Under the pieces are notes generated by a model. The model searched no databases. It was not told the DNA's origin and worked only from the letters and a program-made list of their open reading frames with translations. From Azolla caroliniana (lineage: Eukaryota > Plantae > Polypodiophyta): a DNA stretch of 64,000 nt. Positions 2,451-60,200 of the stretch are shown in pieces. Location: assembly GCA_043228905.1 (NCBI GenBank), contig JBHGNT010000001.1, forward strand, positions 8,556,001-8,620,000, given 5' to 3'. A program made the position numbers and the translations under genes. The stretch's first letter is position 1. Every line of letters starts with the position of its first letter.

Positions 2451-3710
2451 GAAACATCTCTTTAAAATGCTCAAGATCACCTGCAATCTCTCCTTAGGCT
2501 ATCATCCCCAAACAGATGGACAAGCAAAACGTACCAATCAAACGCTAGCACAATATCTTATGTGTTTCCTAAGTTATTAACAAGATGATTGGGCAAATAT
2601 TCTACACTTTACTAAATTTCCTTATAATAATTCTATCAACTCCTCTACTAGGGTTACACCATTCTACTGGTGTGTGTTAGAAACTACGGAGTTACCTACA
2701 AATCCTAGTGCGGAGGATCATTTGGAGTGGTTACGACGAATTCAGGTAGAAATATCTACCTACATACATCACGCCCAGAAAACATAGAACTATGCGGATC
2801 GGCATCGGCTTCCATCCTCTTTAAATATTGGAGATCGAGTATGGCTATTACGACGGCACATCAAGACTATTCGACCGTGTGACAAACTGGATTATCAACG
2901 GTTAGGCCCTTTCCGTATAACGGAAAAGTTAATGATGCTACTTTTCGCCTTGATCTACTTTTGCAACTACGAATACATCCGGCATTTCATAGTCCTCTCC
3001 TACAACCCTATCAGGACAGTACTATCCCAGATCATATTGCACCAACACCACCCCCGATCGAACTTGAAGATGGACCTGAGTATGAGATTGTTGCAATCCT
3101 CGATTCCAAGATTGTTCGCAACAAGCTCTATTATTTGGTCGATTTGCTAGAATATAGTCCAAGCGAGCGTACTTGGGAACCAGTGACGAATTTGGCTAAT
3201 GCTCGAGCTCTTCTTGAAGACTTCCATATCCGGACAAACCAAGTCCCTAATCAAAGACGACTTGTACACTTGTCATTTAAAGGGGGGGGATAGTGCCATG
3301 ATATGGCCCCAAAAGGATTTAAACCCATGACATTGTGTTAAATAGGTTGAACCCTTACCATTAAACCATGCATTGTAATACGAAAGATATTATGTTCATT
3401 TTTTATTTCACCATAGGAAATTCATGTATATTCCAGATTACTCTGGAAAATTCTAGAAACTTCAGGAGTACTATAAATAGAGGCACATGGCATTATTAAT
3501 AACCAATTCGGTTCAACGTCAGTCTTAAGCCTCTTAATTACTCTTGTATCTTCTCTTCATATAATATACCACTTGTTGTCATCATTCTCTCTCTCTCTCT
3601 CTCTCTCTCTCGTGAGTCTCCACACACTTTTCCCCTTCTTAGTACTAATTCTCATTCTTCCTCTCTGTCTTTTGTACTAATTCTCCCTGTCTCTAGTACT
3701 ATCTCTGACA
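2451..3710 (+). mobile_element. Degenerate chromoviral Ty3/Gypsy 3' part: integrase C-terminus, chromodomain, PPT (3281-3290) and 3' LTR (3294-3710); interrupted by the Copia
   Basis: Degenerate YHPQTDGQ..ERTNQ and LGPF motifs. ORF 2961-3293 reads IHPAFH...EYEIVAILDSKIVRNKLYYLVD...RTWEP (chromodomain). The purine run agggggggga is followed by TG, and the LTR ends in ctgaca. Confidence 0.85.
3445..3479 (+). promoter_or_regulatory. Four-unit heat-shock element and TATA box in the chromovirus LTR
   Basis: gGAAaaTTCtaGAAacTTCa (3445-3464) fits the alternating nGAAn consensus; TATAAATA at 3472-3479. Confidence 0.6.
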
Positions 3711-16480: not shown

Positions 16481-18296
16481 ATCTCTCCCCAATCCACTCA
16501 CACCCTTTAGAGACTTGACCATTCCGGCCTCGTCAAAGAGATCGAACAATGCATGTTCTCTCGCCTCCCCCATCGGAACCCTGTCAACTGCCTCAACTAT
16601 CAGTCTCCGCATTTTCGTAGCTCCCTTGACGGGAGGGAAAAGGTCCTCTTGGGCTCTTCTTGAAACAGCCATGTGTCTCCAATCGTCTATAGATAGGAGG
16701 CCTGTTTGTGCCAGCTTTCCCCATGTTAGGCCCTTAAGTTGCCCTAGCATCGTGTCGTCACTTGTTCGCACGTGAGGATTCCAAAATAGTGGTTGTCTAG
16801 TCCATTCGATCAATGTCTCCGGGGTGTGCTTGACCAAATGTTGTCATAGATGGCACCATGCCCGCAAGATGGAGTTCGCGACCCTGTCCTCTGGATGGCA
16901 AGCCAGCTTGGGTGGGACTCCGCTCGTGCAGCACCAATTCAAGGAGTCGGGCCAAGGCCTACCATACGTGGGAGTCCCTGCTTGCAGCCTGTTGCGAAGT
17001 AGTACCTTCCAACACCCCTTACCTGGCAGGAGGCAGCGAACCACCATTTTAGCCAGCAATGAACGACTCTACATTAACGGGTCTATGACGCCAAGCCCCC
17101 CTTTGGCCCACGGTTGTGTTAACCAACACCATGACACTCTGGCGGCAGCCCTTGGGTTGTCCTTACTTGACCATATAAACCCCCTGATGGCAGCCTTAAT
17201 CGCGTGCAGACCTGTAGGGTTCATAATCTAGCATGAGACTGAGTGCCACATGGTAGCAAGCAGCACTTGGTTCGCAACAAGGACCCTACCAGCGAAGGAT
17301 AATTTAGATCTACTCCATTGGGTCAACTTCCTATTTATTTTGGTTTGTACGTGGGCCAATTGCGCTCCCTTGGGGATTGACCTCCCCATCGTAAATCCAA
17401 GGTACTTGAACGTTGTCGAGTTATTACGCAAGTGCGTGTGGAAACGAGGCGGGACCGCGGGGGTCTCGAACCAAAGAGCAAGCGAGGGAGGAGAAAGAGA
17501 GAGAACAGGCTACGCAGAACCGGGGATACACAGGGACACGGCCCTTCAACACGGAGAACGCGAACAGACACCGACTCAGACAGACGCGGATGACTAAATA
17601 TGTATATTAACAAATGGCTAACACGACTACAACCCTCGATGGGGCACAGGTTGGTTACAACCGAACAGGCCGGCGAGCAGATGCCGATGCCTGTTCGCTT
17701 CGACGCACAAACAGGGGAAACGGGGAAACGGGGGTTTGCAGGTCGGAGGTGCTGCCGGAAGCACTCGGGCGTTCCTCGAAACAGCGCGAGCCTCCTCGGA
17801 ACCCTGCACAGAAAGCTATGGAGCTCAAGAAGGAAGGAAACAGAGAGAGAGAAGCGTCCAGAAACGGTCCGACAGCACTTCGTCCTCTCCGCCCGCGATC
17901 CCTGCAACAGCTCTTTCCTCCTCTTTTTATAGCCCAACGAGCAGGCCGTCATGTCAGCTTTATTCCTTGTCCCTTTTGGACAGGGATCCGCTCCGTCCTT
18001 CACGCGTCCGCGTAGATACGCCGCCGACTCGTACAGTTCCTTCGCTCGCGCGCGCGACCGAAAAGACTGTTCGCGCGGTCTTTGTCTCCACTTGTGTTAG
18101 GGCCCGTTCCTGCCGATTATCCTCCTAATTCGCTTCTATGTACAACTTGGAGCTTGCGCGCGTGAAGAACCGGTTCCCACGCCTAGGTGCGCCGATTCTG
18201 CCTATGGACGGTTTTCTTCACGACATCCGCCCCCACCTAACCGCGCATCCTCCGGTATGCGCCAAGAGAGTTGGGACGGAGAAAACCGGCCCGTCT

Positions 18297-23911: not shown

Positions 23912-24740
23912 GTCGGGTTCACCAAAGATGTCGAGTTATTACGCAAGTGCGTGTGGAAACGAGGCGGGACCGCGGGGGTCTCGAACCAAAGAGCAAGCGA
24001 GGGAGGAGAAAGAGAGAGAACAGGCTACGCAGAACCGGGGATACACAGGGACACGGCCCTTCAACACGGAGAACGCGAACAGACACCGACTCAGACAGAC
24101 GCGGATGACTAAATATGTATATTAACAAATGGCTAACACGACTACAACCCTCGATGGGGCACAGGTTGGTTACAACCGAACAGGCCGGCGAGCAGATGCC
24201 GATGCCTGTTCGCTTCGACGCACAAACAGGGGAAACGGGGAAACGGGGGTTTGCAGGTCGGAGGTGCTGCCGGAAGCACTCGGGCGTTCCTCGAAACAGC
24301 GCGAGCCTCCTCGGAACCCTGCACAGAAAGCTATGGAGCTCAAGAAGGAAGGAAACAGAGAGAGAGAAGCGTCCAGAAACGGTCCGACAGCACTTCGTCC
24401 TCTCCGCCCGCGATCCCTGCAACAGCTCTTTCCTCCTCTTTTTATAGCCCAACGAGCAGGCCGTCATGTCAGCTTTATTCCTTGTCCCTTTTGGACAGGG
24501 ATCCGCTCCGTCCTTCACGCGTCCGCGTAGATACGCCGCCGACTCGTACAGTTCCTTCGCTCGCGCGCGCGACCGAAAAGACTGTTCGCGCGGTCTTTGT
24601 CTCCACTTGTGTTAGGGCCCGTTCCTGCCGATTATCCTCCTAATTCGCTTCTATGTACAACTTGGAGCTTGCGCGCGTGAAGAACCGGTTCCCACGCCTA
24701 GGTGCGCCGATTCCGCCTATGGACGGTTTTCTTCACGACA

Positions 24741-30866: not shown

Positions 30867-31409
30867 ATGGCAACTAGATATAGCTCAACTACATTGGTAG
30901 TAGTGATGATGCTTCTAATGGCCATGTCCGTAGTTGCGAGGAAGAGCATCGTACTCAAATACTACACACAACAACAGCTCGGAGTGAATGAATTCGGGAG
31001 TGTGCCGGCAGCCATTCCCCCAGTGAATGGCACATTCACCGGTGTCGGCCTCGAGGTAGTCTATAACTACACGGTGACAAGGACCGGTGACCCTACGTCC
31101 CAAGTGTTGGGCACCATCCGCGGCACGTCTGTCGTCGTGTCCAACACCGCCCAAGCCACATTCTTTGTTGTCAACACCGTGGTGCATTATGCTGACCCCA
31201 AGAAAGGAGGCCTCAATGGCACCTTCACCACACAAGGGGAGGCTAACTTTGGCACCGGGGCTTTCGAGCTAGCTGTGACGGGTGGGACTGGCGACTTCCG
31301 GGGCGTCTTTGGCTACACCACCGCTGTCAACTTCAGGTTCATTCCACCCACAGCCAACTCTACAGCTAAAGTCACTAACTTTTACCGAACCGACCTTTGG
31401 TGGGCATAA
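30867..31409 (+). CDS. Secreted dirigent-like protein (180 aa, intronless)
   Basis: Hydrophobic signal peptide, ELAVTGGTGDFRGVFGY motif, VLGTIRG, four N-x-S/T sites, upstream TATTTAAA (~30779) and an AACAATGGC start context. Confidence 0.85.
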   Translation: MATRYSSTTLVVVMMLLMAMSVVARKSIVLKYYTQQQLGVNEFGSVPAAIPPVNGTFTGVGLEVVYNYTVTRTGDPTSQVLGTIRGTSVVVSNTAQATFFVVNTVVHYADPKKGGLNGTFTTQGEANFGTGAFELAVTGGTGDFRGVFGYTTAVNFRFIPPTANSTAKVTNFYRTDLWWA

Positions 31410-34561: not shown

Positions 34562-35766
34562 GGACGGAGGAAAAAACCCAATAGTGGAGAAGGGAAGAAG
34601 AAGCGAATTTGGTTTTATTATTGTGCTCTCTATCGGTAACGGAATTGAGCACAAAGACAAGCATTGGAAAGCCCTCGAGTAGAGCTTCGCAACGAGATAT
34701 AGCAAGTTGAATTTGGCGGTTTGTACGAGAAACAGCGATAGCAATAAGGAATCTTGTGTTGTCGGCATCCACATACTCAAAACTCATTGTGGGTCTTCGA
34801 TTGCTTTCAAAATCTTCGACCTCTTCAATTGGGTGAGTTCTGATTTTCTCTCTTGTTCATGGAAAATTGTTTTTATCCCGGATCGATATAATGATGGACA
34901 TAAACATGAATTCCTCACAAATTGTGGGGGATATTGATATGGAAACAATCGATCCAAAAACGAGTAATGTGATGGTTGAATGTAATCGTGAAAGGGAAGA
35001 CATTGGAAGCTCTAAGAGGTTTAAGGGAATTGAAGAAATTAATAAGAAAAAATTAACATATTCCAAAATAATACATGTAGATGAAGTTGACAAGGATCAC
35101 TGTAATTGGGATAATTTATGGGGAATTGCCAATACCTTATTGTCGGATATTGTGGAAGAAAATGAAAATGCAGCGAAAGAATGCATTGAAGAGGATGTGC
35201 ATGATTTGGAAGTTGAGACTAAGGCAGTTTTGCAATCATTTGATGTATTCTACGATCGTGTTGTTATATTATTTTTTACCGGCAAACTCCCATATGTTAA
35301 TTGGATTAAACAATGGTTGAACACAATCATGTCACCAAATTGTGTTGAAAATATATATGCATGACCACAAGGGTTTTATGATGTGGTATTTTGTTCACCG
35401 GAGTATCGAAGTGCATTGTTGGGTAAAGTTCCTGTGTTTTTTGATAAACGATTGGTGCATGTTATGCAATGGTCCCCCGTAGTGGACTATCATGCTTTGT
35501 TAAAACAAGAATGTCCTGTTTGGGTTAGAGTGGATTGTAAGCATGCTTTTTTATGGCCACTTTTACCAGAGTTGATGAGTCAAATGGGTAAAGTGTTGGT
35601 ATCTCCACATGCAAATGCTGCAAATAAGTGCAGATTTTGTGTGTTATGGGATACAAGTCACAAGAGGCCAGGATGGGTGCGAATGAATGCTCCTGGTATG
35701 AGAAGTCTTTGTTTTAAACTGAAGTGGGAGACATTTGCAGGTCATTGTTTTGGATGTGGTGAATGA

Positions 35767-36746
35767 TGTTATCATGATGATTGTTGTGTGTGTGTAGGGG
35801 GCATAAATGTAATTGTGAGTCGATACGTATGTGAACACATGCACACGTGTGTGCATGTGGATGGATACGAGGAGGTGTAAGTGAGTGTCCAGTATGAATG
35901 CTCTAGGGGGCTTACACCCCTTTGTATCTACCCCCTCTTGTACTATTTAACCCCTTATGGGGAATGAATGAAAGATGAATGATCATTTTCTCTCTCAATC
36001 TCTCTCTCTCTTGTCATCTCTCTTTCCCCCTCACCGGCTTGGTAGTAGTCGTTTTCCTCACGGGTTGCCGTCGTGGTTGGGCTGCCGGCGGCCCTTCGTT
36101 CAAATGGGTTCTTGGGCATAGGTCCTTTGTATGGTTTTAGTCTAAATCCGTTGACCCATTTACCCAGCACCTCGCCGACAAGTGTCCCTAACTGGTAAGA
36201 CCCATTAAACCCGCGTGTGATCCAGTATGGTCCGGTCCATCTAAACCGTAGTTTGCTTGGCATTTTACCCATCCGGGTCTGGAACACTAGTACCGGCTTG
36301 CCAACTTCAAACATCTTTTCATTTCCTTTCCGGTGCCGATCTACAAACTCTTTCCGTCGTCGTTGTTCCAATTCCAGGTGCATAATGCTGACCAGTCGGT
36401 GTTCTTCTAGTTCACACAGAGCCTTTAACCGAATTGCCTCTGATTCCTTTTCATTGAGTCGTTCCCGAATCTGAATCCGTAAGCTCGGTACCTGGAATTC
36501 AACGGGCATGACTGCCTCTAATCCGAATGCTAACCGGAACGGTGTTGTTTGGATGCTTGTTTTGTACGTTGTCCTGTAAGCCCAGAGCGCACTGTGCAGC
36601 TTCGTGTCCCAATCTGTCCGATTTTCATTGACGATCTTGCACAGGATATTCTGTAGCGTTTTGTTTGTTGACTCCGCTAATCCGTTGGCTTGTAGGTAGT
36701 ACGGGATGCTCCGTTTATGTACTACCACATAGAATGACGTCAAGCT
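35767..36746 (-). mobile_element. Truncated Gypsy fragment (integrase C-half, PPT, 250-bp 3' LTR 35767-36016) inserted in LINE ORF1
   Basis: QANGLAES...ALWAYRT...WTGPY; gagggggaaagagaga precedes TGACA..TAACA; absent from LINE copy B. Confidence 0.85.
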
Positions 36747-37400
36747 GGGTCACTTTATGGCGGAATACCATGGTCATTGTCCTTCAACTATAGAGGTTCC
36801 TATTGAAGGGAACGATAAGGAAGGAGTTGGGAGAGATGTTGGTGTGTCAGATTTTGTGGATGAAGGAACATCACCTAGAGCAGGTTATAAAGAGGTCTCA
36901 CTTCAAGGTTTGGGCCCTAAGAATAAGGGAATTGAATCTATGGATATGGAAAAACAAAGTTTAGTGGTTAAAGATAAGGGGAAAAAACCATTGGATAGAG
37001 CTAGTAGTGATGTTATTGACAAAGATTGGCATGAAGTTAAGGGCAAGTCGAAAGGGAAATCAATGAATATGCAACGTAGTAGCTTGCCCACTACTCCTGT
37101 GACTACTTGGCAAGGTAATTCAAGAACTAGGGAGGGCCCTCGAAAAGTTCCTTGGCAACGATAATCTAGGGATAAGGGATTACCCCTTCACCTTCAATTT
37201 GATTCATTAGGACGAGTTATAAATTCATCGAATTCTCGAGGTTTTCGTCAAGCGGGAGGACCTAAAAAAAAGGTTTCGATAGACAACCCTAAGGATGTGA
37301 TGCATGAAAATCCATATGCAGCATTGGAGCATGCTTTGACTAGTTTCATGACATTGGTTGCTCTAAAGGAGCAAGTGCTCCCATAACATTTTTTTATTGA

Positions 37401-40400
37401 ATGAAAGTGGTAACATGGAATGTGAGAGGGGCATGTTCTCCTCATAAGAAGTATATACTATGGGAAACTTTGTTAAGTAGAGAATGGGATGTAGTATGTG
37501 CAGTTGAGCATAAGTGTCATGAGTTAGCGGGATCCACAATGCATTTGCGTGGATATTCATCATTTTATGCAGGACATCTTAATAATCATTATTCAGGTGT
37601 GGTATTAATCGTGAGGGATAAGTATTATCCTCAAGTGGTGCATAATGATCCTTATGGTCGGTTTTTGGTTCTAGAAATCACTTTTTTTGGCGAGGTTGTG
37701 TGGGTGGTTGGGATTTATGCCCCTAACCAAGCCACTCAACATATTGCATTATGGTGTTCACTCCTTCAAACCCTATCTATTGGACGTCCAGGATTACTTA
37801 TGGGCGATTTTAACATGTGTGTTGATGCATTTCAATCCACGTCTGAACATTCAATCATGGATGATCCTGAGCAACTTGCTTGGGACTCAATTGCTATGGA
37901 GGTTCTGAAGTTGGATGTTTGGACATGGTTGCAAGGGAATGATCCAGGTTTTACCTTCCAATCTGCTCAACATAGACAAACATGGAGTCGGTTAGATAGA
38001 AAGTATGTGATGGATTATGATTCTTTTTTACCGACATCACTTCGTATGAACGTTCTACAAGATGTTGGAACTTCAGATCACTTTCCTATTTGCTTGGAGG
38101 TGTGTAATCATGCAATTGACATGTATAAATTTTTACTTGGAAAGCCTCCACTACGCTTTAACTCTTCTCTTTTGCTTCAACCTCACTTTGATTCTCTCAT
38201 CGAGCAAATTTTGGTAGAGTTTTCTCAACAAGTGAATCTTAAAGGAGTTAAAGCATGGTATATCACATTACGAAACATTAACATCATTCATCATATGTAT
38301 GAAGTAACCAATGCTCAAAAAAGAAGAGGTCTTATTCGACAATTCTCACAAGTTCTCTCTAGGTGTAATGCATTATTGATACATACACCATTAGATGAGG
38401 AGCTTTTGGATATTCAGAGTCAATTGCATGTTATTTTTTCTCAATTGCAATGCCAAAGTTATCGTTATGCTAAGATGCGACAACTCAAGGAAGGACTAAT
38501 TGATAATCAATGTCAATCTCATTTGTTTTTCCAAGCATTACATCCTACAACAATAATTGACATATGTCTTCATTACTTTAAGGAGTTGATTGGTCCACAA
38601 TTGTTAATGACAGATGAGGTGAGTAGAGCACGTCATGAGTTTTATGATGTGGTTGGATGTATTGTGCATGATCTCATTAGTCATGAATTGGATGCGGATT
38701 TCACTAAGGATGAGGTGGTTGTAGTTTTAAGGCATCTTCCTATTGGTAAGAGCCTTGGTTGGGATGGCTTGACAAATGAAGTTTTTAAGAGATATTCCTA
38801 CATTTTAAAGGGGCCCTTGACTTTGATGTTTCAACAGTCTTGGGATTCTGGTTGTATGCCTCAAGCTTGGAAGATTGGTCTAATTAAACTAGTTCCAAAG
38901 GTGGCATCTCCTAAGTCATTTCATCAATGGAGACCTATTTCTTTGATGGGGGGGTTGTACAAGATATTTACGAAGGTCTTGGCAAATAGATTAAAAAAGT
39001 ATTTGCCAAAGTTGATACACCCCGCCCAATATGGTTTTATTGCAGGTAGAAATATATTGCATAATGTGTTGAATGTTCAAATGGCCATGGATTATGCTCG
39101 GAACACTCATCAAGAATTGATTATGGTGCAATTAGATTTGGAGAAAGCTTATGATCATGTTAATTGGTCTTTTGTTTCTGGGTTAATGCATACAATGGGC
39201 TTTGGACCTCGTATGTCTCGCCTCATATTTTTATTAGAACGAGATGCAGTGTCTCGAGTAATGCTTAATGGAGGAGTTACATCAGATATTGCCCTCACAA
39301 GATTCTTTCGTCAAGGATGCCCTCTTAGCCCATTGTTGTTTGCTATTGTTACTCATCCTTTGTTAGTGATGTTATCAAGACTTGCAATAAATGGTGACAT
39401 TGTGGGTTTACACCTTCCGTCCGGAGGGCAAATAGTAGCACAAGTTTTGGCGGATGATTCTTTCATGTTTTCACAAGCCTCACGGAATAATCTTGAGAAG
39501 GGGATGCTTGTATGGAATCAATTTGCATTGGCTTCCGGATTACATATTAATTGGAGGAAGTCTAGTCTCATATCATGCACTGAAAGGGATTTGGAATGTT
39601 TAGGATGGCAAGGATCCGTGGTGAAGAAAGGCTCTATTTTTCGACACTTGGGCTATCCATTAGGAATGAATGTTACAAATGGTCAATTGATTGAATGGAT
39701 GTCTAGTAAGTTGAGGGATAAATTCATGTATTGGAAGTCACAATCTTGGCCATTTCATGTTTGCTTGAAGGTTGTACAATGTATTATGGAACCCATGATA
39801 TTATATTACTTGCCATCATTGCCATGGACAAAGAAGGCGTTGAATTCTATTTTGCAACCTCTTCGATATTTGTTGTGGAAGAAGAGGGATAAGATGGGAA
39901 TCACATGGATTGCTTGGAATCATCTAGCAACCCCTAAGAGATTGGGGGGGATTGGAATATTGAACTTATCTATGCATATGATGGCTCGTAGATTTTCATT
40001 ATTAGAAGACATGTGTTCAAACTCACAACCATGGATATCTATTGTTCGATATTTTCATTGAGAACAAGGGTTTAACACATGGGAGGATAACGATTAAGGC
40101 TTCATGGTGGCAATTACTAAATGGATGTATTTCACTTAGGATTCCGGGTTCTTCATGTGTTCAACACTTAGTTACCTCATGGCAAGAAGCACTCTTGTTA
40201 TGTGTATGGAAACCATCATCTTCTAGAGAGCATTGTAACTCTTTGCAAAAAGAGTTACTTGTGTCTTCTCAGTTATTATGTTGGCCAGGAAAGGAGAGAT
40301 TGTGTTCTCAATTTAATCGTTTGTTTCGTTTGGGGGTCAAAGAGGTGGGAGATATAGTTGAGGTTCCATCTCAAAGGATTTTGGAGTTTACTGAAGCACG

Positions 40401-41175
40401 ACAATTATTACGCATCCCACCTAATTATGGGTTTATTTGGCAACAACTACAGAATATTGCATTGATGCAAGGTCCCTTACCTCTACAAACAAGAGAACAA
40501 TCGTGGATTGATTGGAGTTTAAGGGGTTAAACACCATTGTTACAAGTGACTACTAATCTTTTGTATCATTGTTCCGTTGAGTCTCTTGGATGGTTATCAT
40601 CTAAGGCTGAAGAAGAATGGAAAATACACAAATCTGATCATGGGTGGTGGCAGATCTTACAACGTAGTTGGCATTCTAAATTGCCACTTGTTGCAAAGTT
40701 ATTCATTTGGAGAGTTTTCATCGAAGGATTGCCTTTGGGATTAGCTTTAAAGCGTCGTGGACTAGCAACAGGTACCTGCTTCTTTTGCACAGTTCAGATA
40801 GAAGATAGTACTCATCGATTTATACAATGTCCAATTGCTTGTCAAATTTGGAGTTACATTTCTCAAATTTGGCAAGTTTTATCACGGAGTTATTTGACAC
40901 CTAGACAATGGGTGTTTGCACAATTTACACAGGCTAACCCAAAATCAAAGATGGAGATTGTTTTCCTATTTTTGAGATATTGGGGATTGCGTCATAATTG
41001 GAACATGCGTAACGCTTTTGTATTCGATGGTAAACATGGAGTGAAAACATATCTACGAAAGTTGAAGGGGGTACTAATGTGGCAATTTTCTTTATTGGAA
41101 CAAGTGGAAATTCTTTCCTCGATGGAGTGTTCGTCTTGCCTATTGGCAATTCAATATGTTCCACTACCCATGTAG
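37401..41175 (+). pseudogene. LINE ORF2 (APE, RT, zf-RVT) with frameshifts near 40061 and 40530
   Basis: MKVVTWNVRG, MGDFN, SRLDR, SDHFP, WRPISL, LDLEKAYD, RQGCPLSP, LADD, CFFC..HRFIQC. Confidence 0.92.
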
Positions 41176-41290
41176 TGTAGTGTGGTTAGTGTGTGACTAT
41201 ACTCCATTGTCACACGTATTGTAAGTAGTGTTTTTCACACACATTTATTAATATACATAATTGTGTGTTTTCACCCAAAATAATAATAAT

Positions 41291-44796: not shown

Positions 44797-46371
44797 GGCA
44801 ACTGGGAATCTGAGAGGTGAAGAGGAGGAGGAGGAAGAAGAAGAAGTTAATGATTGATCTGCGTTTTCCTTAACTGTATTGAGCAGAGAGATATTTTCTC
44901 TCTGTGTTTTAAAACGTGCAAGGAGGGGGGGCTTGGCCGGAATCGAACACGTTTCCTGAAGGAATCAATTGCAGGGCTGACCTTTACACGGAGAGACAGA
45001 GAGAGAGAGAGAGACCTACAGAATTGCAACTTCTTTATGTTTGTTTTAGTATGACTCTTTCTCTTCAATCATTTGTAAGTGGGTTAAGTCCTTCTTCAGC
45101 TTTCTTTTGAATAACACGCCTCCCCCCGAACCGGCGGCGCTGAGATAATCTCTTACTCTCTTCCGGACACAATCAATTCTGGATGTTATCCATGGGAATA
45201 ACATGTCTTCGTTGGTTACTTACTACGAGGAGATGAGCTATTATTTAGCATTAGGACACATTCGTATCATAGACATTAGCATGCCCCATTGACTCGACAA
45301 GCTTGGCTTCATCCATTATTAATACATGTTTTTTTGTTGGACAATACGTGTCCCTTAGCAAATGTCCAACACTTGAGCAAATTATGTACTTCCACCAATG
45401 TCAAGAGGACAGGTAGAATGGTATTCAATTGATGTATAGCTAATGAAGATCCAAATACATTAGAAAATCCAAGATTCTCCAGCATCTTGTGTAGGTACCA
45501 TCATTTCCTATATGGGAAAACAAGTTCAACTAACAAACAAATAATGGGCTCAATGAGTACCCGTGTTGCACTAATTGTGTCAAAGGTATTAATTTCATCA
45601 CTCCACCGTGTAGGATAATGTGCGACATTGCACCTATCTCCGAACATGTAACAAATGAAAGTTTTCAATGACAAGAGGGAATGATGAGTGTGGACACACC
45701 TGCACCACTTGCCCTCTCCCTTGCTAAAGTAGAAAAACCAAAAGAACAACCAAACGCCCTCGGATACTAGGGCCCAAAGTTACTCGTTGTGTAGAAGTAA
45801 TTAAGAAGATAGGGGAACGTGAGTTACACTGCCTAGAAGCTATGGTCGAGATACCTTTTACATCGGAACCACGGGTCACACCCACATCGAAACCCTTTAA
45901 CCTCCCGCTCCTTTTCGAGAGACTCGGATGGAAATGAAACTAGGCCTAGCACATAGTCATTTCCTTTGTAGAATATGTTACACCATAACATCTTTTGTAC
46001 AATACTAGAACATTTTTATCTATGTTAAATTTTATTTTTATTTTCGATGATTGGGTACACATCCCATTTTGTTGTAACCAATTGTTGCATGGGCCAAATT
46101 TAGCCTTACAAGACATTTATATCTTTCTTTATTTTCCCACATGAAAGTGCGGTATAATATCCTTGCACCAAAATTGATATGGCAAATAAGTTGGGCAATA
46201 AACAATCAAGTAAAATGGCTCTCGTGCTCACTCATTCTCACTCTCTCTCTTATCGTAATTAGCTTACCCTAGTGGTAAGTCGTTTACACTACTAGCACTA
46301 CACCTTGGGTTCGAAACCAAATTTTCTTACTTCTCTATTACTCCATAGAGATCTCTTATTTCACTACTAGA

Positions 46372-46560
46372 TGTCACTGTAGGATGAGGGGTTAAACCTC
46401 TAATGAACCCATGACCATATGGTCTCCATTGGGTAACCTTACCAACTGAGCTACATCCATCTGGGGCCACCGTGGAATGTAGGGGTTGAACCTCTAATGA
46501 ACCCATGACCACCTGGTCTCCGTTGGGCAACCTTACCAACTGAGCCACATCCATATGGTC
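46372..46560 (-). repeat. Tandem dimer of the tRNA-derived cassette
   Basis: Two ~90-bp units, each with an A box (TRGCTCAGTTGG) and a B-box-like GGTTCATTAGAGGTTYAACCCC. Confidence 0.7.
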
Positions 46561-47577
46561 TCTCTCTCTCTCTCTCTCTCTCTCTCGACCATGTGGGTAG
46601 TGGAGTACACATAACAAATGATGCGACGAATAATGATGATGTGTGAGAAAGGGGTGAGACAGAGAATTCAACCGGTCATGTTTTAAAGACGTCTAGTAAA
46701 CTATATTGTTCACATTCTCGTCCAAAAATCTTGGAAGGTGTATAGTTGAGAATACTAATATTGCATGATTTTTATTACCTATAATATCCATGAATTTGAA
46801 TGTTTGCACAACTCTAAAGGTTTGAGATGTTATCTTAGTTTTCAATTATTGTAACACATTCTATTTTGCATTGCCATCCAGAAAATTGGAGGTAGATCAT
46901 GGTTTCTAGAACCATCTCACTTTGCTATTACATTCTATGTCTCAATCATGGCATTTGAAGAGAAACTTTTGGCTTTCTAATAAAAAACAAAGAAAACAAT
47001 CAATTGCATATTAAGGTAATCCTAGTAATGTCTTGATCCCTCAAGTTCAATCTAAATATGCATGACAAATGTGGATTGAGCCGTTATTTACATATAAAAT
47101 ATGGCCTTCATTTGTCCACCTTTGTTGTTAAAAGCAATTTGATGTATGGATCATTAATGTATTTATTCGATCTTTCCATTACCATGCCTTGTCCACGTGA
47201 AAGAAGTTTAGTGTGTTTTTACCATGCTAGTTGAACAATTAGAAGTGTTTGAAAACCAACTTTGAGATCACTTATTTTTGTGTCATTAATTAAACTCAAA
47301 GCCATATTGAATTGCAATGTTGTGTTCAATATGTTATAATAGCTAATGATCTATGGTGATAGGGGGATTACAACATACTATCTTGCATAAGTATGATGAT
47401 CAATGTTTATAATAACCAGTTAATTAAAATATTAATGAAAGTAATGGATTGAGAGAACTTAATTGCTAACCACTCCCAACCAAAGGAAAAGACATGAATG
47501 CAAATAGAACCTTGTGTTACATAGCGAAATTCTAGCATACCACAAATCGAAATACAAGAACTTTGCCTCACCAATAG

Positions 47578-51937: not shown

Positions 51938-53418
51938 TTTAGTCAAACAAGAAATTGTTAGTTATATTTGGTCTCACACTATCACATGTAAATTATGCAA
52001 AGGATGGCCAAACACGTAATTGCTGATTATATTTGATCACACTTAAATTCAGTCAAATGATAGCTAAACCAATCACAGTAAATGATTTAAACTCTCAATC
52101 TCCCAAATGGGATTCTCAATGCCCACTACTAAGGTAGTCTTAATCTCTTGCAAGTTTAAAGAGATGCTAATGGATATGATCACAGGTGCACATATGTACT
52201 TACACCTGATATGTACTTACAAACCCTATAAAATTTCATCCTTGAACCAAAATTGAGGTAATGCTAAGAAAATGTTTCTCCCTTTGCTTTGCAGGATAAG
52301 ATATTAATACTGGTGACAACCAAGAGAGAAGAGTTGTGAAGATGAAGAGAAATGGAGAATGGATATGATCACAGGTGCACATATGTACTTACACCTGATA
52401 TGTACTTACAAACCCTATAAAATTTCATCCTTGAACCAAAATTGAGGTAATGCTAAGAAAATGTTTCTCCCTTTGCTTTGCAGGATAAGATATTAATACT
52501 GGTGACAACCAAGAGAGAAGAGTTGTGAAGATGAAGAGAAATGGAGTTGTTGATTTATCCCCTGTAAAATGAACAGAGCTAATGCCTATGTCTACTGTCC
52601 AAATGATCTTTCAATTTGCAAGAAACTAAGAAAAATGATGATTTACCATGCAATTTTCTACAAACCCTCAATAGAGAAAACATCCACTAGACTCACACTT
52701 GTGCAGGTGAAGAGAAGTGGAGTTGTTGATTCATCCCCTGTAAAATGAACAGAGCTCGAGCTGGGTGGGTCTTGCCTATGCTTGTCCACTGTCCAGATGA
52801 TCTTTCAATTTGCAAAAAACTATGCAAAATGATGATTTCCCATGCAATTTTCTACAAATCCTCAATAGAGAAAACATCCACTAGACTCACGCAGTTGATA
52901 AACATAGGCTCTAGACTCACGCAGCTCAAACTCTATTCATTTTACAGGGGATGAATCAACAATTCCACTTCTCTTCATCTGCACAACTCTTCTCTCTTGG
53001 TTATCACCGGTGTTAACATCTTACCCTACAAAGCAAAGGGAGAAAGCTTTCCTTATCATTTCCTCAATTTTGGTTCAAGAATGAAATTTTATATTGGTTT
53101 GTGAGTACATATCAGTGTGCTTGAGTAAGTATGTGCACCTATGATCATACTTCATTAGCATCATCATTACCATCTCTTCAAGCTTTCATGAGATTAAGAC
53201 TACTTTAGTGGTGGGCATTGAGATACCATTTGTGAGATTGAGAATTTAAATCATGGCAAAACATTTGCTGTGATTGATTAGGCTATCCTTTGACTTAATT
53301 TAAGTGTGATCGAATATAATCAGCAATAACTTGTTTGGCTATCTTTAGCATGATTTATGTGGGATAGTGTATTGACTCTTGAGGTCAAATACAACTAACA
53401 AACAATGTTTGATCAAAT
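51938..53418. repeat. Long imperfect inverted repeat with internal tandem duplications
   Basis: Left arm ~51938-52580 is the reverse complement of ~52930-53418; 189-bp tandem duplication at 52169/52358. Confidence 0.88.
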
Positions 53419-54350: not shown

Positions 54351-56783
54351 AAGAAGAAGAAGCGAATTTGTTTTTTGTTGCTGCGCTACGCTCTCTATCA
54401 GAAACGGAATTGGGCACAAAGGCAAGTGTTAGAAAGCCCTCGATTAGAGTTTTCTAACGATATATGACAAGTTAAATTTGGTGGTTTGTACGAGAAGCAG
54501 CGATAGAAATAAGGAATCTTGTGTTGTCGGCATCCACATACTCAACATATTGTGGGTCTTCAATTGTCTTCATCATCTTCGACCTCTTCAATCGAGTGAG
54601 TTCCGGCTGTCTCTCTTGTTCATGGAAAATTGTTTTTATCCCGGATTGATATCATATCAAGAATAATGGATATAAACATGATTTCCTCACAAATTGTGAG
54701 GGACATCGATATGGAAACAATTGATCCAAAAAAGAGTAATGTGATGGTTGATTGTAATCGTGAAAGGGAAGACATTGGAAGCTCTAAGAAGTTTAAGGGT
54801 ATTGAGGAAATTAATGAGAAAAAATTGACATATGCCGAAGGAATACATGTATATGAGGTTTACAAGATTCATTATAATTGGGATAATTTACTGGGAATTG
54901 CCAATACCTTGATATATGATATTGTGGAAGAAAATGAAAATACAATGAAAGAATGCATTGATGAGGATGTGCATGATTTGGAAGTTGATGTTAAGGCAGT
55001 GTTACAATCTTTTGATGTATTCTATGATCGTGTTGTTATATTATTTTTTACCGGGAAACTCCCATACATTAATTGGATTAAACAATGGTTGAACACAATC
55101 GTGTCACCAAATTGTGTTGAAAATATATATGCATGACCACAAGGGTTTATTCGTTCACCAGAACATCAAAGTGAATTGTTGGCTAAAGTTCCTGTGTTTT
55201 TTGATAAACGATTGGTGCATGTAATGCAATGGTCCCCCATAGTGGACTATCATGCTTTGTTAAAACAAGAATGCCATGTTTGGGTAGTAGTGGATTGTAA
55301 GCATAATTTTTTATGGCCACTTTTACCAAAGTTGATGAGTCAAATGGGTAAAGTGTTGGTATCTCCACATGCAAATGCTACAAATAAGTGCAAATTTTGT
55401 GTGTTATGAGATACAAGTCGTAAGAGGCCCGAATGGGTGTGTATGAACACACCTGGTATGAAAAGACTTTGTTTTAAATTGAAGTGGGAGACATTTGCAG
55501 GTCATTGTTTTGGATGTGGTGAATGGGGTCACTTTATGGTGGAATGCCACTGTCACTGTCCTTCAACTATAGATGTTCTTAATGAAGGGAATGGTAAGGA
55601 AGGAGTTGGGAGAGATGTTGGTGTGTTAGATATTGTGGTTATTGTGGATAAAGGAGCATCGTCTAGAGCAAGTTATAAAGAGGGCTCACTTCAAGGTTTG
55701 GACCCTAAGAATAAGGGAACTCAATATATGGATATGGAAAAACAAAGTTTAGTGGTTATAAATAATGGGGAAAACCCATTGGATAGAACTAGTAGTGATG
55801 TTGTTGTTGACAAAGATTGGCATTAGGTTAAGGGCGAGTCGAAGTGGAAATCAATGAATATGCAACGTAATAGTTTGCCCACTACTCGTGAGACTACTTG
55901 GCAAGGTAATTCAAGAACTAAGGAGGGTCCTCGAAAAGTTCCTTAGCAATGACAATTTAGGGATAAGGGATTACCCCTTCACCTTCAATTTGATTCATTG
56001 GGACGGGTTGTAAATTCATCGAATTCTCGAGATTTTCGTCAATCGAGAGGACCGAAACAAAAGATTTCGATAGACAACCTAAGGATGTGGTGCATGAAAA
56101 TCCATATGCAGCATTTGAACATGCTTTGACTAGTTTCATGACATCAGTTGCTCTAAAGTAGCAAGTGCACCCATAACATTGTTGATTGAATGAAAGTGGT
56201 AACATGGAATGTGAGAGGGGCATGTTCTCCTCATAAGAAGTATATATTATGGAAAACTTTGTTATGTCGATAATGGGATGTATTATGTGCAGTTGAGCAT
56301 AAGTGTCATGAGTTAGCAAGATCCATAGTTCATTTGCATGGATATTCATCATTTTATGCAGGACATCTTAATAATCATTATTCATGTGTGGTATTAATCA
56401 TGGCGGATAAATATTATCCTCAAGTGATGCATAATTATCCTTATGGTCAGTTTTTGGTTCTAGAAATCACATTTTTTGGCGAGGTTGTGTGGGTGGTTGC
56501 GATTTATGCCCCTAACCAAGTCACTCAACGTATTGCATTATGGGGTTCACTCCTTCAAAGTCTATGTGTGGGTTGTCCAGGATTACTTATGGGTGATTTA
56601 AACATGTGTGTTGATGCATCTCAATCTACGTCTGAACATTTAATCATGGATGGTCCTGAGCAACTGGCTTGGGATTCATTAGCTATGGAGGTTCTGAAGT
56701 TGGATGTTTGGACATGGTTGCATGGGAACGATCTAGGTTTTACCTTCCAATCCACTCAACATATACAAACATGGAGTCGATTA

Positions 56784-56878
56784 TGTCACGGACGTAGACA
56801 AGCAAGTACAAGTAGGCAACCTCAATATTAACAAAGAGCGAAAGATAGATATATAGATAGAGAGGAGCATAGACAAGA

Positions 56879-56927
<49 letters not shown>

Positions 56928-57256
56928 CAAAAGAGCGAGAACTAAATTATGCTTCCGTAACTGGTGTTGTTCACCTTGATTGTAATCAAGGTGCACCGAA
57001 GTATTTATACAAGAATGTGGTGGTATGCATGTAAGCTAGGAAACATCTAGAGAATGCATGGAAACTTCTAGAGAGTGCATGTCTATGCATTCTCTGGGAG
57101 TTTCTTGAAAGCTCTAATGATTAACTTACAATGTAATAAGTTGAAACTTATACAATACAATAATGCACAGATGGAATGTAGCTCAATTGGTAAGGTTTCC
57201 CAATAAGACCAAGAGGTTATGGGTTCAACCCCCTACATTCCATCATGTCTATGACA
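56784..57256 (-). mobile_element. Solo LTR inserted in LINE copy B, carrying a tRNA-like cassette
   Basis: tgtca..tgaca ends. Flanks gatta/agtta each differ by one transition from ggtta at the empty site in copy A. Reverse TATA near 57001. Confidence 0.85.
57172..57243 (+). ncRNA. tRNA-like Pol III cassette (not a canonical tRNA)
   Basis: 7-bp stem TGGAATG/CATTCCA, A box TAGCTCAATTGG, B box GGTTCAACCCC, 72 nt long; D and anticodon arms are non-canonical. Confidence 0.55.
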
Positions 57257-60200
57257 AGTTAGATAGAATGTATGTGATGCACAATGATTCATTTTTAACG
57301 ACATCACTTCCTATGAAAGTTCTACAATATGTAGGAACTTCATATCACTTTCCTATTTGTTTGGAAGTTTGTAGTCATGCAATTGACATGTATACATCCT
57401 TACTTGGAAAGCCTCCATTATGCTTTAACTCTTCTCTTTTGCTTCAACCTCACTTTGATTCTCTCATGGAGCAAATTTTGGTAAATTTTTCACAAGTGAA
57501 TCTTAATGGAGTTAAAGCATGGGATAACACGTTAGGAAACATTGATGCGAAAACTCAAGGATGGGCTCATATATAATCAATGTCAATCTCATTTGTTTTT
57601 CCAAGCATTACATCCTACTTATGCTCGCTCTAATGTGGTACATGTGCAGCAAGGGGATGAATTGATAGTGGATCCTACTACAATAATTGATATATGTGTT
57701 CTTTACTTTAAGGAGTTGATTGACCCACGATTGTTAATGACAACTGAGGTGAGTAGAGCACGTCATGAGTTTTATGATGTGGTTGGATGTATTGTGCATG
57801 ACCTCATTAGTCATGAATTGGATGCAGATTTCATTGAGGATGAGGTGGGCACGGTTTTAGAGCATCTTCCTAGTGGTAAGGGTCTTGGTTGGGATGGCTT
57901 GACAAATGAAGTTTTTAAGCGATATTCGAACATTTTAATGGGGCCTTAACTTTTATGTTTCAAGATATTCTTGGGATTCTAGTCATATGCCTCAAGCTTG
58001 GAAGATTGGTTTAATTAAATTAGTTCCAAAGGTGGCATCTACCAAGTCATTTCATCAATGGAGGCATGTTTCTTTGATGGGGGGGTTGTATAATATATTT
58101 ACAAAGGTCTTGGCAAATAGATTACAAAATTATTTTCCAAAGTTGATACATCTCGCCCAATATGGTTTTATTGCAAGTAGGAATATATTGCATAATGTGT
58201 TGAATGTTCAAATGGCCATGGATTATGCTCGAAACACTCATCAAGAATTGATTATTGTGCAATTAGATTCGGAGAAAGCTCATGATCATGTTAATTGGTC
58301 CTTTGTTTCTGGGTTAATGCATACAATGGGCTTTGGACCTCGTATGTCTCGCCTCATATTTTTATTAGAACGAGATGCAGTGTCTCGAGTAATGCTTAAT
58401 GGAAGAGTTACATCAGATATTGCCCTCACAAGATCCGTTCGTCAAGGATGCCCTCTTAGCCCATTGTTGTTTGCTATTGTTACTCATCCTTTGTTAGTGA
58501 TGCTATCAAGACTTGCAATAAATGGTGACATTGTGGGTTTACACCTTCCGTCCGGAGGGCAAATAGTAGCACAAGTTTTGGCGGATGATTCTTTCATGTT
58601 TTTACAAGCCTCACGGAATAATCTTGAGAAGGGGATGCTTGTATGGAATCAGTTTGCATTGGCTTCCGGATTACATATTAATTGGAGGAAGTCTAGTCTC
58701 ATATAATGTACTGAAAGGGATTTGGAATGTTTAGGATGGCAAGGATCTATGGTGAAGAAAGGCTCTATTTTCGACACTTAGGTTATCCATTAGGGATGAA
58801 TGTTACAAATGGTCAATTGATTGAATGGATGTCTGGTAAATTGAGGGATAAGTTCATGTATTGGAAGTCACAATCTTGGACATTTCATATATGCTTGAAG
58901 GTTGAACAATGTATTACGGAACCCATGATATTATATTACTTGCCATTGTTGCCATGGACAAAGAAGGCTTTGCATTATGTTTTGCAACCTCTTCGATATT
59001 TGTTGTGGAAGAAGAGGGGTAAGATGGTAATCACTTGGGTTGCGTGGAATTATCTAGCAACCCCTAAGTGTTTGGGGGGGAGCTAGAATATTGAACTTAT
59101 TTATGCATATGATGGCTTGTAGATTTTTATTATTACAAGACATGTGATCAAACTCACAACCATGGATATCTATTGTTCGATATTTCATTGAGAACAAGGG
59201 TTTAACACATGGGAGGACAATCATTAACGCTTCATGGTGGCAATTACTAAATGGATGTATTTCACTTAGGATTTTGGGCTCTTCATGTGTTCAACACTTG
59301 GTTACCTCATGGCAATAAGCACTCTTGTTATGTGTATGGAAACCATCCTCTAGTAGAGAGCATTGTAATTCTTTGCAAAAAGAGTTACTTGTGTCTTCTC
59401 CGTTATTATGTTGCCCAGGCAAGGAGAGATTGCACTCTCAATTTAATCGTTTGTTTTGTTTAGGGGTCAAAGAGGTGGGAGATATAGTTGAGGCTCCATC
59501 TCAAAGAATTTTGGAGTTTGTTGAAGCACGACAATTATTACACATCCCGCCTAATTATGGGTTTATTTGGCAACAACTACAAAATATTACATTGATGCAA
59601 GGTCCCTTACCTCTATAAATTGGAGAACAACCGTGGATTTATTGGTGTTTACGGGGTAAACGTCGTTGTTACGAGTGACTACTAATCTTTTGTATCATTG
59701 TTTTGTTGAGTCTCTTGGATGGTTATCATCTAAGGCTGAAGAAGAATGGAAAATACACAAATCTGATCATGGATGGTAGCAAATCTTACAACATAGTTGG
59801 CATTCTAAATTGTCACTTGTAGCAAAGGTCTTCATTTGGAGAGTTTTGATTGGAGGATTGCCTGTGGGATTAGTTGTAAAGCATCATGGACTAGCAACGT
59901 GTAATTGCTTCTTTTGCACTATTCAAATGGAAGATAGTACTCATCGATTTATACAATGTTCAATTGCTTGTTAGATTTGGAGTTACATTTCTCAAATTTG
60001 GCAAGTTTTATCACGATGTTATTTGACACCTAGACAGTGGGCGTTTGCACAATTTACACAAGTTGACCCAAAATCAGAGATGGAGATCGTTTTTCTATTT
60101 TTGAGATATTGGGGATTGCGTCATAATTGGAACATGCGCAACACTTTTGTATTCGATGGTAGTCATGGAGTGAAAGCATATCTACGAAAGTTGAAGGGAG

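Follow-up and report, generated by a model that had tools for sequence, protein, structure and literature searches.

The window, that is, the whole 64-kb stretch of Azolla caroliniana DNA that was analysed, contains two diverged long terminal repeats (LTR1 and LTR2), each of them carrying close to its 5' end a tRNA-like unit that is antisense to the LTR and points outward (Table 1). The preliminary description had placed both LTRs and their units correctly, and the architecture that it gave them in common is indeed present in both; with an R-region motif that they also share, the order is unit, GAA/TTC repeats, TATA box, R-region motif and (CT)n tract. The GAA/TTC repeats lie upstream of the TATA box (3420-3465 in LTR1, 57040-57110 in LTR2), and we take them to be heat-shock-element-like. 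The repeat stretch of LTR1 has by far the highest contig depth and is therefore common to many LTR families.

Table 1 Features of the two LTRs and of a related tandem feature in the 64-kb window (positions of the window).
Feature	Position	Strand	Remarks
Integrase C-terminal and chromodomain remnant	2883-3293	+	frameshifted upstream; cut by a copia insertion at about 2465
Polypurine tract (PPT) preceding LTR1	3280-3293	+	same form in relatives
3' LTR (LTR1) of a decayed, truncated Tcn1-like chromovirus	3294-3710	+	417 bp
Antisense tRNA-like unit of LTR1	3305-3375	-	A box 3358-3368; B box 3316-3325; A-B spacing 43
TATA box of LTR1	3472-3479	+	GAA/TTC repeats just before
TGTCA and two tandem 94-bp copies of an LTR2-type unit, then (CT)n	46372-46586	-	unit copies 46372-46558
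Decayed 5-bp target site duplication (TSD), left	56779-56783	+	flank of LTR2
Solo LTR (LTR2)	56784-57256	-	473 bp; ends TGTCA...TGACA; high-copy family; inside a LINE copy
R-region motif of LTR2	56960-56969	-	conserved; after the self-primer in relatives
TATA box of LTR2 (Pol II promoter)	57002-57009	-	
tRNA-like unit of LTR2	57172-57243	+	antisense to LTR2; 13 bp in from the 5' end of the LTR
A box of LTR2 unit	57179-57190	+	tRNA positions 8-19
Extended B box of LTR2 unit	57216-57231	+	GT at tRNA positions 46-47 and B box 57222-57231
Decayed 5-bp TSD, right	57257-57261		flank of LTR2

The chromodomain remnant preceding LTR1 matches PF00385 (E 1.6e-9), with a weak PF24626 match in the neighbouring frame, and one of the aromatic-cage residues of this decayed copy is non-aromatic. 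Both boxes are present in the LTR1 unit (PWM score 29.5); its fold z is only -1.66, and it has no match to the Rfam tRNA model. One fixed position of its B box departs from the consensus; about 55% of the contig depth of run X1 has the consensus base there. The first 120 nt of LTR1 cluster at 90% with those of three surveyed loci (L020, L027, L040). A run that we guess to be RNA gave three contigs over positions 3406-3568 and none over the unit, a result that is uninformative either way.

LTR2 interrupts a LINE whose paralogue in the window (34594-41274) represents the empty site, being uninterrupted at 37989-37993, which matches the insertion point. Each flank of LTR2 is one base off the empty 5-mer of this paralogue, so LTR2 is an old solo LTR. 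Its unit matches the Rfam tRNA model (RF00005) at 25.2 bits (E 0.0074), below the gathering score of 29, and has a PWM score of 26.5 under a model built from other loci; the extended B box fits the GTCnnnnGTTCRAnYC form given in PMC3159450. The 7-bp acceptor-like stem described earlier is real in this copy, where it extends into a 12-bp inverted repeat (fold z -3.54), and it is not a trait of the family (see below). The proposed search for a parental tRNA yielded only this sub-threshold match, which was also the sole tRNA match of the Rfam E-value scans among the stretches scanned: the units of three relatives gave no Rfam match, and ARAGORN predicted no tRNA in the window or in the related loci (60 of the 77 scanned).

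The LTR2 family was surveyed in the contigs of four runs (three organism labels) over 56930-57420, with 606 to 1,275 records per run. Contig depth in the LTR2 region is highest over 56947-56997, and the summed depth over the unit, which is not a copy number, is about that of the adjacent U3. Past 57256, the loose ends of contigs have the sequence of a reverse-complemented PPT (agreement about 0.6), indicating that the family includes PPT-linked 3' LTRs as well as copies with other flanks. The variants listed within the unit all fall in the spacer and none in the A box; the only B-box change listed is a one-base loss in the C run, which leaves the consensus unaffected. Clean excision of the unit was not found among the joints listed, and only 13 bp lie beyond the unit. 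The family shares a PPT-like junction, the TATA box and the R motif with the Tcn1-like clade; no internal sequence of the family was recovered from these contigs, and it is a putative chromovirus-type element.

Two sites absent from the preliminary description also carry unit copies (46372-46558 and 46265-46317). The tandem copies at the first are 82-85% identical to the LTR2 unit, with a partly duplicated B box and no Rfam tRNA match. Neither a TSD nor an LTR end was found for the 46372-46586 feature, which is likely a rearranged remnant of the LTR2 family, or else a free derivative. The second site is a further A/B-like unit on the forward strand (PWM score 20.1) that faces the tandem pair, and its spacer sequence is unrelated. 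Other features of the window are: a young GC-rich gypsy element, both of whose LTRs (17414-18225 and 23929-24740, 99.9% identical) contain, close to the 3' end, a sense sequence that fits the B box perfectly (17472 and 23987), with no evident A box, matches that may be due to chance; a foldback-like, very CpG-poor stretch in which inverted and tandem repeats are nested (51955-53401); and an intronless dirigent-like gene (30867-31409, forward strand) whose close relatives are found only among metagenome proteins.

An alignment search with the integrase end confirmed 155 related stretches, and 77 loci were taken from them, all belonging to a single series of related assemblies, which may cover a narrow range of hosts; no relative turned up when viral contigs were scanned with the chromodomain alignment. 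An LTR start could be assigned in 65 loci; dropping six with less than 120 nt and adding LTR1 gave 60 LTRs. An antisense perfect B box (GGTTCRANNC) occurs within the first 70 bp of 33 of the 60 (51 when up to one mismatch is allowed), compared with 0.3% (5.6%) of dinucleotide shuffles, none (14) in the sense control over the same 70 bp, and none at either threshold on the antisense strand at 100-170 bp. When the window of search was set to 75 bp, the perfect box was found in 24/33 LTRs on contigs with a coverage of 8 or more and in 10/27 from low-coverage contigs. The full canonical A/B unit is present in 41/60 LTRs, and A-B spacing is 43-44, the distance of class I tRNAs, in 43/60; indels are confined to the outside of the A-B interval, and the B box lies anywhere between 11 and 63 bp from the LTR end. 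In collapsed contigs, one and the same LTR is continuous both with the PPT and with the PBS (11 LTR ends), which together with the solo copy is an indirect sign that both LTRs carry the unit. By inspection, the unit has no TSD, 3' tail or direct repeat of its own. No B box is recognisable in five of the 25 family representatives, and three of these (L034, L038, L051) are on contigs with a coverage of at least 8, so the unit is not indispensable. Some multi-copy families have lost or rearranged it.

Clustering at 80% gave 26 families, 18 of them with a canonical unit. Mean pairwise identity among these 18 at the fixed positions is 0.90 in the A box and 0.92 in the B box, values that are partly circular; tRNA positions 44-48 reach 0.80, and the acceptor, anticodon and 3' T regions stand at 0.37-0.41. 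Circularity was checked in two ways. The 25 top-coverage family representatives were taken without selection for boxes: 20 have the B box, all 20 of these have GT at positions 46-47 (background 0.067 per position), and in 16 of the 20 the TGG of the A box is found 34-35 nt further upstream (background 0.015 per position). A plain MAFFT alignment of 13 families, also without box selection, gave 0.63 for the B box, 0.58 for positions 44-51, 0.31 for the spacer and 0.33-0.36 for the flanks; the TATA window (0.59) and the self-primer window (0.57) are on a par with the B box, and the A box (0.43) is just modestly above background. The module is thus inherited within U3, as had been proposed, and does not result from chance SINE insertions: it is present in most of the LTRs, at a fixed place, within one reverse transcriptase clade, and its boxes are more conserved than the neighbouring sequence. 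None of the outcomes that the preliminary description had named as refuting its proposal was observed.

The variation within the unit is also informative. Positions 46-48 read GTC in 10 and GTT in 8 of the 18 families, a signature of tRNA-gene-internal B boxes in Dictyostelium (PMC3159450), and variation in the B box fits the TFIIIC pattern (G or A at position 57, any of the four bases at position 59). Pairing in the D, anticodon and T stems is no better than in partner-swap controls, pairing in the acceptor stem is slightly above control (0.39 versus 0.33, p about 0.045), and the anticodon position is free across families; together with the lack of ARAGORN predictions, these results do not support a conserved cloverleaf. 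A conserved terminator is not supported either, since among 21 high-coverage loci the first T4 after the B box is 11-48 nt away in 11 and at least 255 nt away, or absent in range, in 10. Interpreting the 44-48 motif as a WRKY W-box was considered and abandoned, since GTT occupies that place in half of the families. The 60 bp upstream of the unit are 67-90% AT. The unit has an A and a B box at tRNA-like spacing, the layout of a type 2 Pol III promoter; the boxes and their geometry are kept and the fold, the anticodon and the terminator are not, which indicates that selection maintains a DNA recognition pattern rather than a tRNA fold or a defined RNA.

The carriers of the unit form a single lineage. 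In the collapsed contigs of the relatives of LTR1 the gag and pol ORFs are intact, with pol ORFs of about 1,200 codons beside the LTR, and Pol identity among the main sub-branches is about 68-76% (leaving out L069, whose ORF is misframed). The aromatic cage of the chromodomain was detected by pattern in 30 of 33 high-coverage loci, and in the other three it is aromatic by eye. A quick reverse transcriptase tree (38 rows, no named Tcn1 included) placed 13 unit-carrying elements in one branch (SH-aLRT 99), L029, without LTR sequence, and L034, with a rearranged unit, being counted among them. The best named protein matches are Tf2/sushi-like elements of fungi and vertebrates (about 50-55%), and the likeness to SM-Tcn1 is by eye only. 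These elements prime themselves: in 9 related loci, a sequence about 32 nt after the TATA box pairs over 12 bp with the PBS, and the pair occurs in three versions that covary; the window itself has no 5' LTR-PBS junction. Such Tf1-type self-priming is typical of the Tcn1 clade (PMC6317226). The R region of L008, L028, L033 and L050 often has a second complement copy before the self-primer, giving a hairpin at the presumed start site, and the self-primer core of these loci resembles a B box. Outside the lineage, a perfect antisense B box was found in none of 20 distant gypsy LTRs (20 calls, several doubtful, from 34 loci, the other 14 giving no call), and a PWM scan of 80 loci gave three matches, none at an LTR start. 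The outward A/B unit is lineage-specific, on a count that lacks the LTRs of sister groups P0037, P0041, P0042, P0047, P0048, P0062 and P0067 and the 5' part of the L081 LTR.

One sub-branch (L006, L017, L018, L019) has a second antisense A/B unit, in frame in the protease-RT linker of pol at about codon 166-168 (2954-3005 in L006, 2654-2705 in L017). A perfect B box inside pol was found in 4 of the 18 pol ORFs scanned, as three distinct sequences, and was absent from the rest; in a fifth copy of the sub-branch the pol unit is altered. Small as the sample is, this suggests repeated acquisition.

On the evidence of the alignments, the unit is a real, inherited and selected module of U3, and it is quite probably recognised by TFIIIC. 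That the self-priming Tcn1-like clade uses it as a TFIIIC/TFIIIB DNA platform shielding its own Pol II promoter has, in our view, about an even chance of being right, and a barrier role is an evenly balanced candidate for the main selected function. More tentatively, and somewhat short of even, an outward tRNA promoter at the edge of U3 may have been domesticated as a portable TFIIIC/TFIIIB boundary, with the capture repeated in frame in pol by one sub-branch. The portable barrier is favoured because TFIIIC sites can act as heterochromatin barriers (PMC3159450), because chromodomains with an aromatic cage can direct integration to H3K9-methylated chromatin, that of MAGGY binding H3K9me (PMC4600332), and because the cage is kept in 30/33 loci. 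The history would begin with one ancestral capture of a tRNA or of the head of a tRNA-SINE into U3, either by an antisense SINE or tRNA insertion or by a switch of template to a tRNA immediately after plus-strand priming, in which case the tRNA 3' end would have been written first, as seen; ordinary reverse transcription would then copy the unit to both LTRs. TFIIIC that has bound the boxes loads TFIIIB upstream of them (PMC3159450). Here it would occupy the extended B box and the A box and put TFIIIB on the 60 AT-rich bp upstream; at the outer edge of the LTR, only an outward-facing unit would have this footprint inside the portable LTR, beside the Pol II promoter. Any Pol III would move off away from the Pol II promoter of the element. 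At the 5' LTR, the complex would form a barrier against heterochromatin spread or read-through from the flank, which would be useful as the chromodomain probably steers the elements to H3K9-methylated chromatin. Counting against such a platform, TFIIIB bound in the 3' LTR could, by analogy with yeast, form a roadblock that impedes Pol II on its way to R.

The same boxes might instead be kept as an active Pol III promoter, selected for the antisense RNA that it produces; this RNA would run from the 3' LTR across the PPT into the chromodomain and integrase and limit the element through dsRNA/siRNA or by interfering with plus-strand priming. Both boxes and their natural spacing would be expected to persist if transcription matters beyond TFIIIC binding, 10 of the 21 high-coverage loci have no T4 within 250 nt after the B box, and the second unit of one sub-branch is antisense inside pol. 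However, since the terminator is not conserved, the product would differ widely between families, and 5' and solo LTRs would read into unpredictable host DNA; this counts against a defined antisense RNA, and we regard the reading as fairly unlikely. Recognition of a captured tRNA sequence by other proteins (Pol II factors, integrase) or its use as a nucleosome-positioning signal fits the usual location of Pol II enhancers in U3 and the near-palindromic core of the B box (the 14/60 sense matches at one mismatch), but the distribution of fixed and free positions, like the A-B geometry, agrees in detail with a type 2 Pol III promoter, and the variable distance to the LTR end is unlike an integrase att site, making this reading improbable. 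The unit might also be no more than a neutral remnant of a single ancient insertion of a tRNA or SINE that has travelled with U3: the fold, anticodon and terminator are not kept, some multi-copy families have lost or rearranged the unit and both window copies are decayed, but conservation is site-specific, with the boxes at about 0.9 (partly circular) and positions 44-48 at 0.8 (free of that circularity at 44-47) beside arms at 0.37-0.41, it holds across families whose Pol proteins are only about 68-76% identical, and indels stay outside the A-B interval. The MAFFT alignment and the counts in unselected representatives have largely refuted this reading already, and we consider it hardly credible.

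Two further explanations start from the resemblance to tRNA or to tRNA genes. An anti-tRNA in the RNA of the 3' U3 could pair with a tRNA, a tRNA fragment or the self-primer for circularisation or strand transfer, like the 3' part of the bipartite PBS of Ty3, in which U3 sequence complementary to the tRNA T and D arms lies just past the PPT (PMC5371799). This would account for the antisense orientation and for the position just past the PPT, and the conserved positions are also invariant loop bases of tRNAs. But Ty3 pairs with a specific primer tRNA, and the relatives have no tRNA PBS and prime themselves through the 12-bp pair, which weakens a primer-pairing role; moreover, the U3 motif does not track PBS changes (for example in L017-L022), position 59 is free, and divergence of the spacer, the anticodon arm and the acceptor has reduced the complementarity to short islands at promoter-box positions. 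Pairing of this kind is decidedly unlikely. The unit might also mimic a tRNA gene as a landing pad, so that Pol III-targeting elements (Ty3/Tj1-like, perhaps of its own clade) insert upstream; the self-priming element Tj1, which is related to Tf1, inserts itself 1-10 bp upstream of the sites where Pol III starts (PMC4600332). This is very improbable: among the best-supported rows listed, contig loose ends do not pile up just upstream of either A box, low-coverage LTR1-type copies run on normally past the A box, and a perfect B box lies within 200 nt in only 1 of 16 host flanks, where it is part of a copia-like coding sequence.

The statement in the preliminary description that no tRNA-type equivalent had been described did not hold as worded, since tRNA-type boxes in LTRs are already known from Helenus (TRIMp3; Kojima 2024, PMC10886601), the described tRNA-type counterpart of Cassandra. 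Its LTRs contain tRNA-derived sequence, conserved around boxes A and B and non-functional as a tRNA, its fungal and plant families have a 5-bp TSD, and capture of a SINE or tRNA into the LTR has been proposed. What stands of the statement is that Helenus elements are non-autonomous (311-1263 bp, with a tRNA PBS) and that their unit is in sense in the supplement entries examined, where it is thought to transcribe the element, whereas the relatives of LTR1 have gag-pol with a chromodomain, self-priming and a TATA promoter, and the unit points outward (sense 0/60). Different here are the antisense orientation and the occurrence in autonomous, self-priming chromoviruses. Kojima argues that autonomous partners must use Pol II and remarks that "not a few" Repbase LTRs contain tRNA-like sequence, describing none of them. 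Cassandra and Ajax TRIMs also have a Pol III promoter in both LTRs, but theirs is a 5S-derived type 1 promoter that drives the RNA of a non-autonomous element (PMC10886601, PMC12786077), and the unit here is of tRNA type. The tDNA, ETC and COC barrier sites of yeast are a comparable B-box-based platform in the same extended form (PMC3159450); they are host loci with barrier activity, whereas the present site, a candidate barrier, travels in each retrotransposon copy.

The Tcn1 clade, with SM-Tcn1 of Selaginella, is a close likeness for the carriers: a two-ORF gag/pol, an aromatic-cage chromodomain, LTRs of about 440 bp, and self-priming without a tRNA PBS (PMC2864245, PMC6317226). By eye, the R-region and PBS motifs and the integrase C-terminus of SM-Tcn1 resemble those of the relatives, but its LTR (supplement S3 of PMC2864245) has tandem repeats and no antisense B box at the 5' edge. 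In the same S3 sequence, also by eye, the sequence after the TATA box is complementary to that just after the 5' LTR, giving a self-priming site, which PMC2864245 reports as not found. The term polymerase III is absent from the main texts of PMC2864245 and PMC6317226, and a full-text literature search, with subscription papers, Repbase reports and some supplements outside its scope, found no description of an antisense unit in LTRs of autonomous chromoviruses.

These results bear on the open question of how chromoviruses stay transcribable after landing in heterochromatin, for which a clade-wide outward TFIIIC site is a concrete, testable answer, with unit-less families, decayed copies and SM-Tcn1 as natural controls. 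The idea developed for TRIMp3 would be extended from sense promoters of non-autonomous elements to autonomous elements that put the boxes to another use. To our knowledge, Pol III barrier biology has been little studied in non-seed plants. If the barrier reading is true, each new copy would carry its own chromatin barrier into the heterochromatin to which the chromodomain targets it, and every solo LTR would seed an insulator usable by the host. Many solo LTRs would thereby become candidates for TFIIIC sites or insulators in a non-seed plant.
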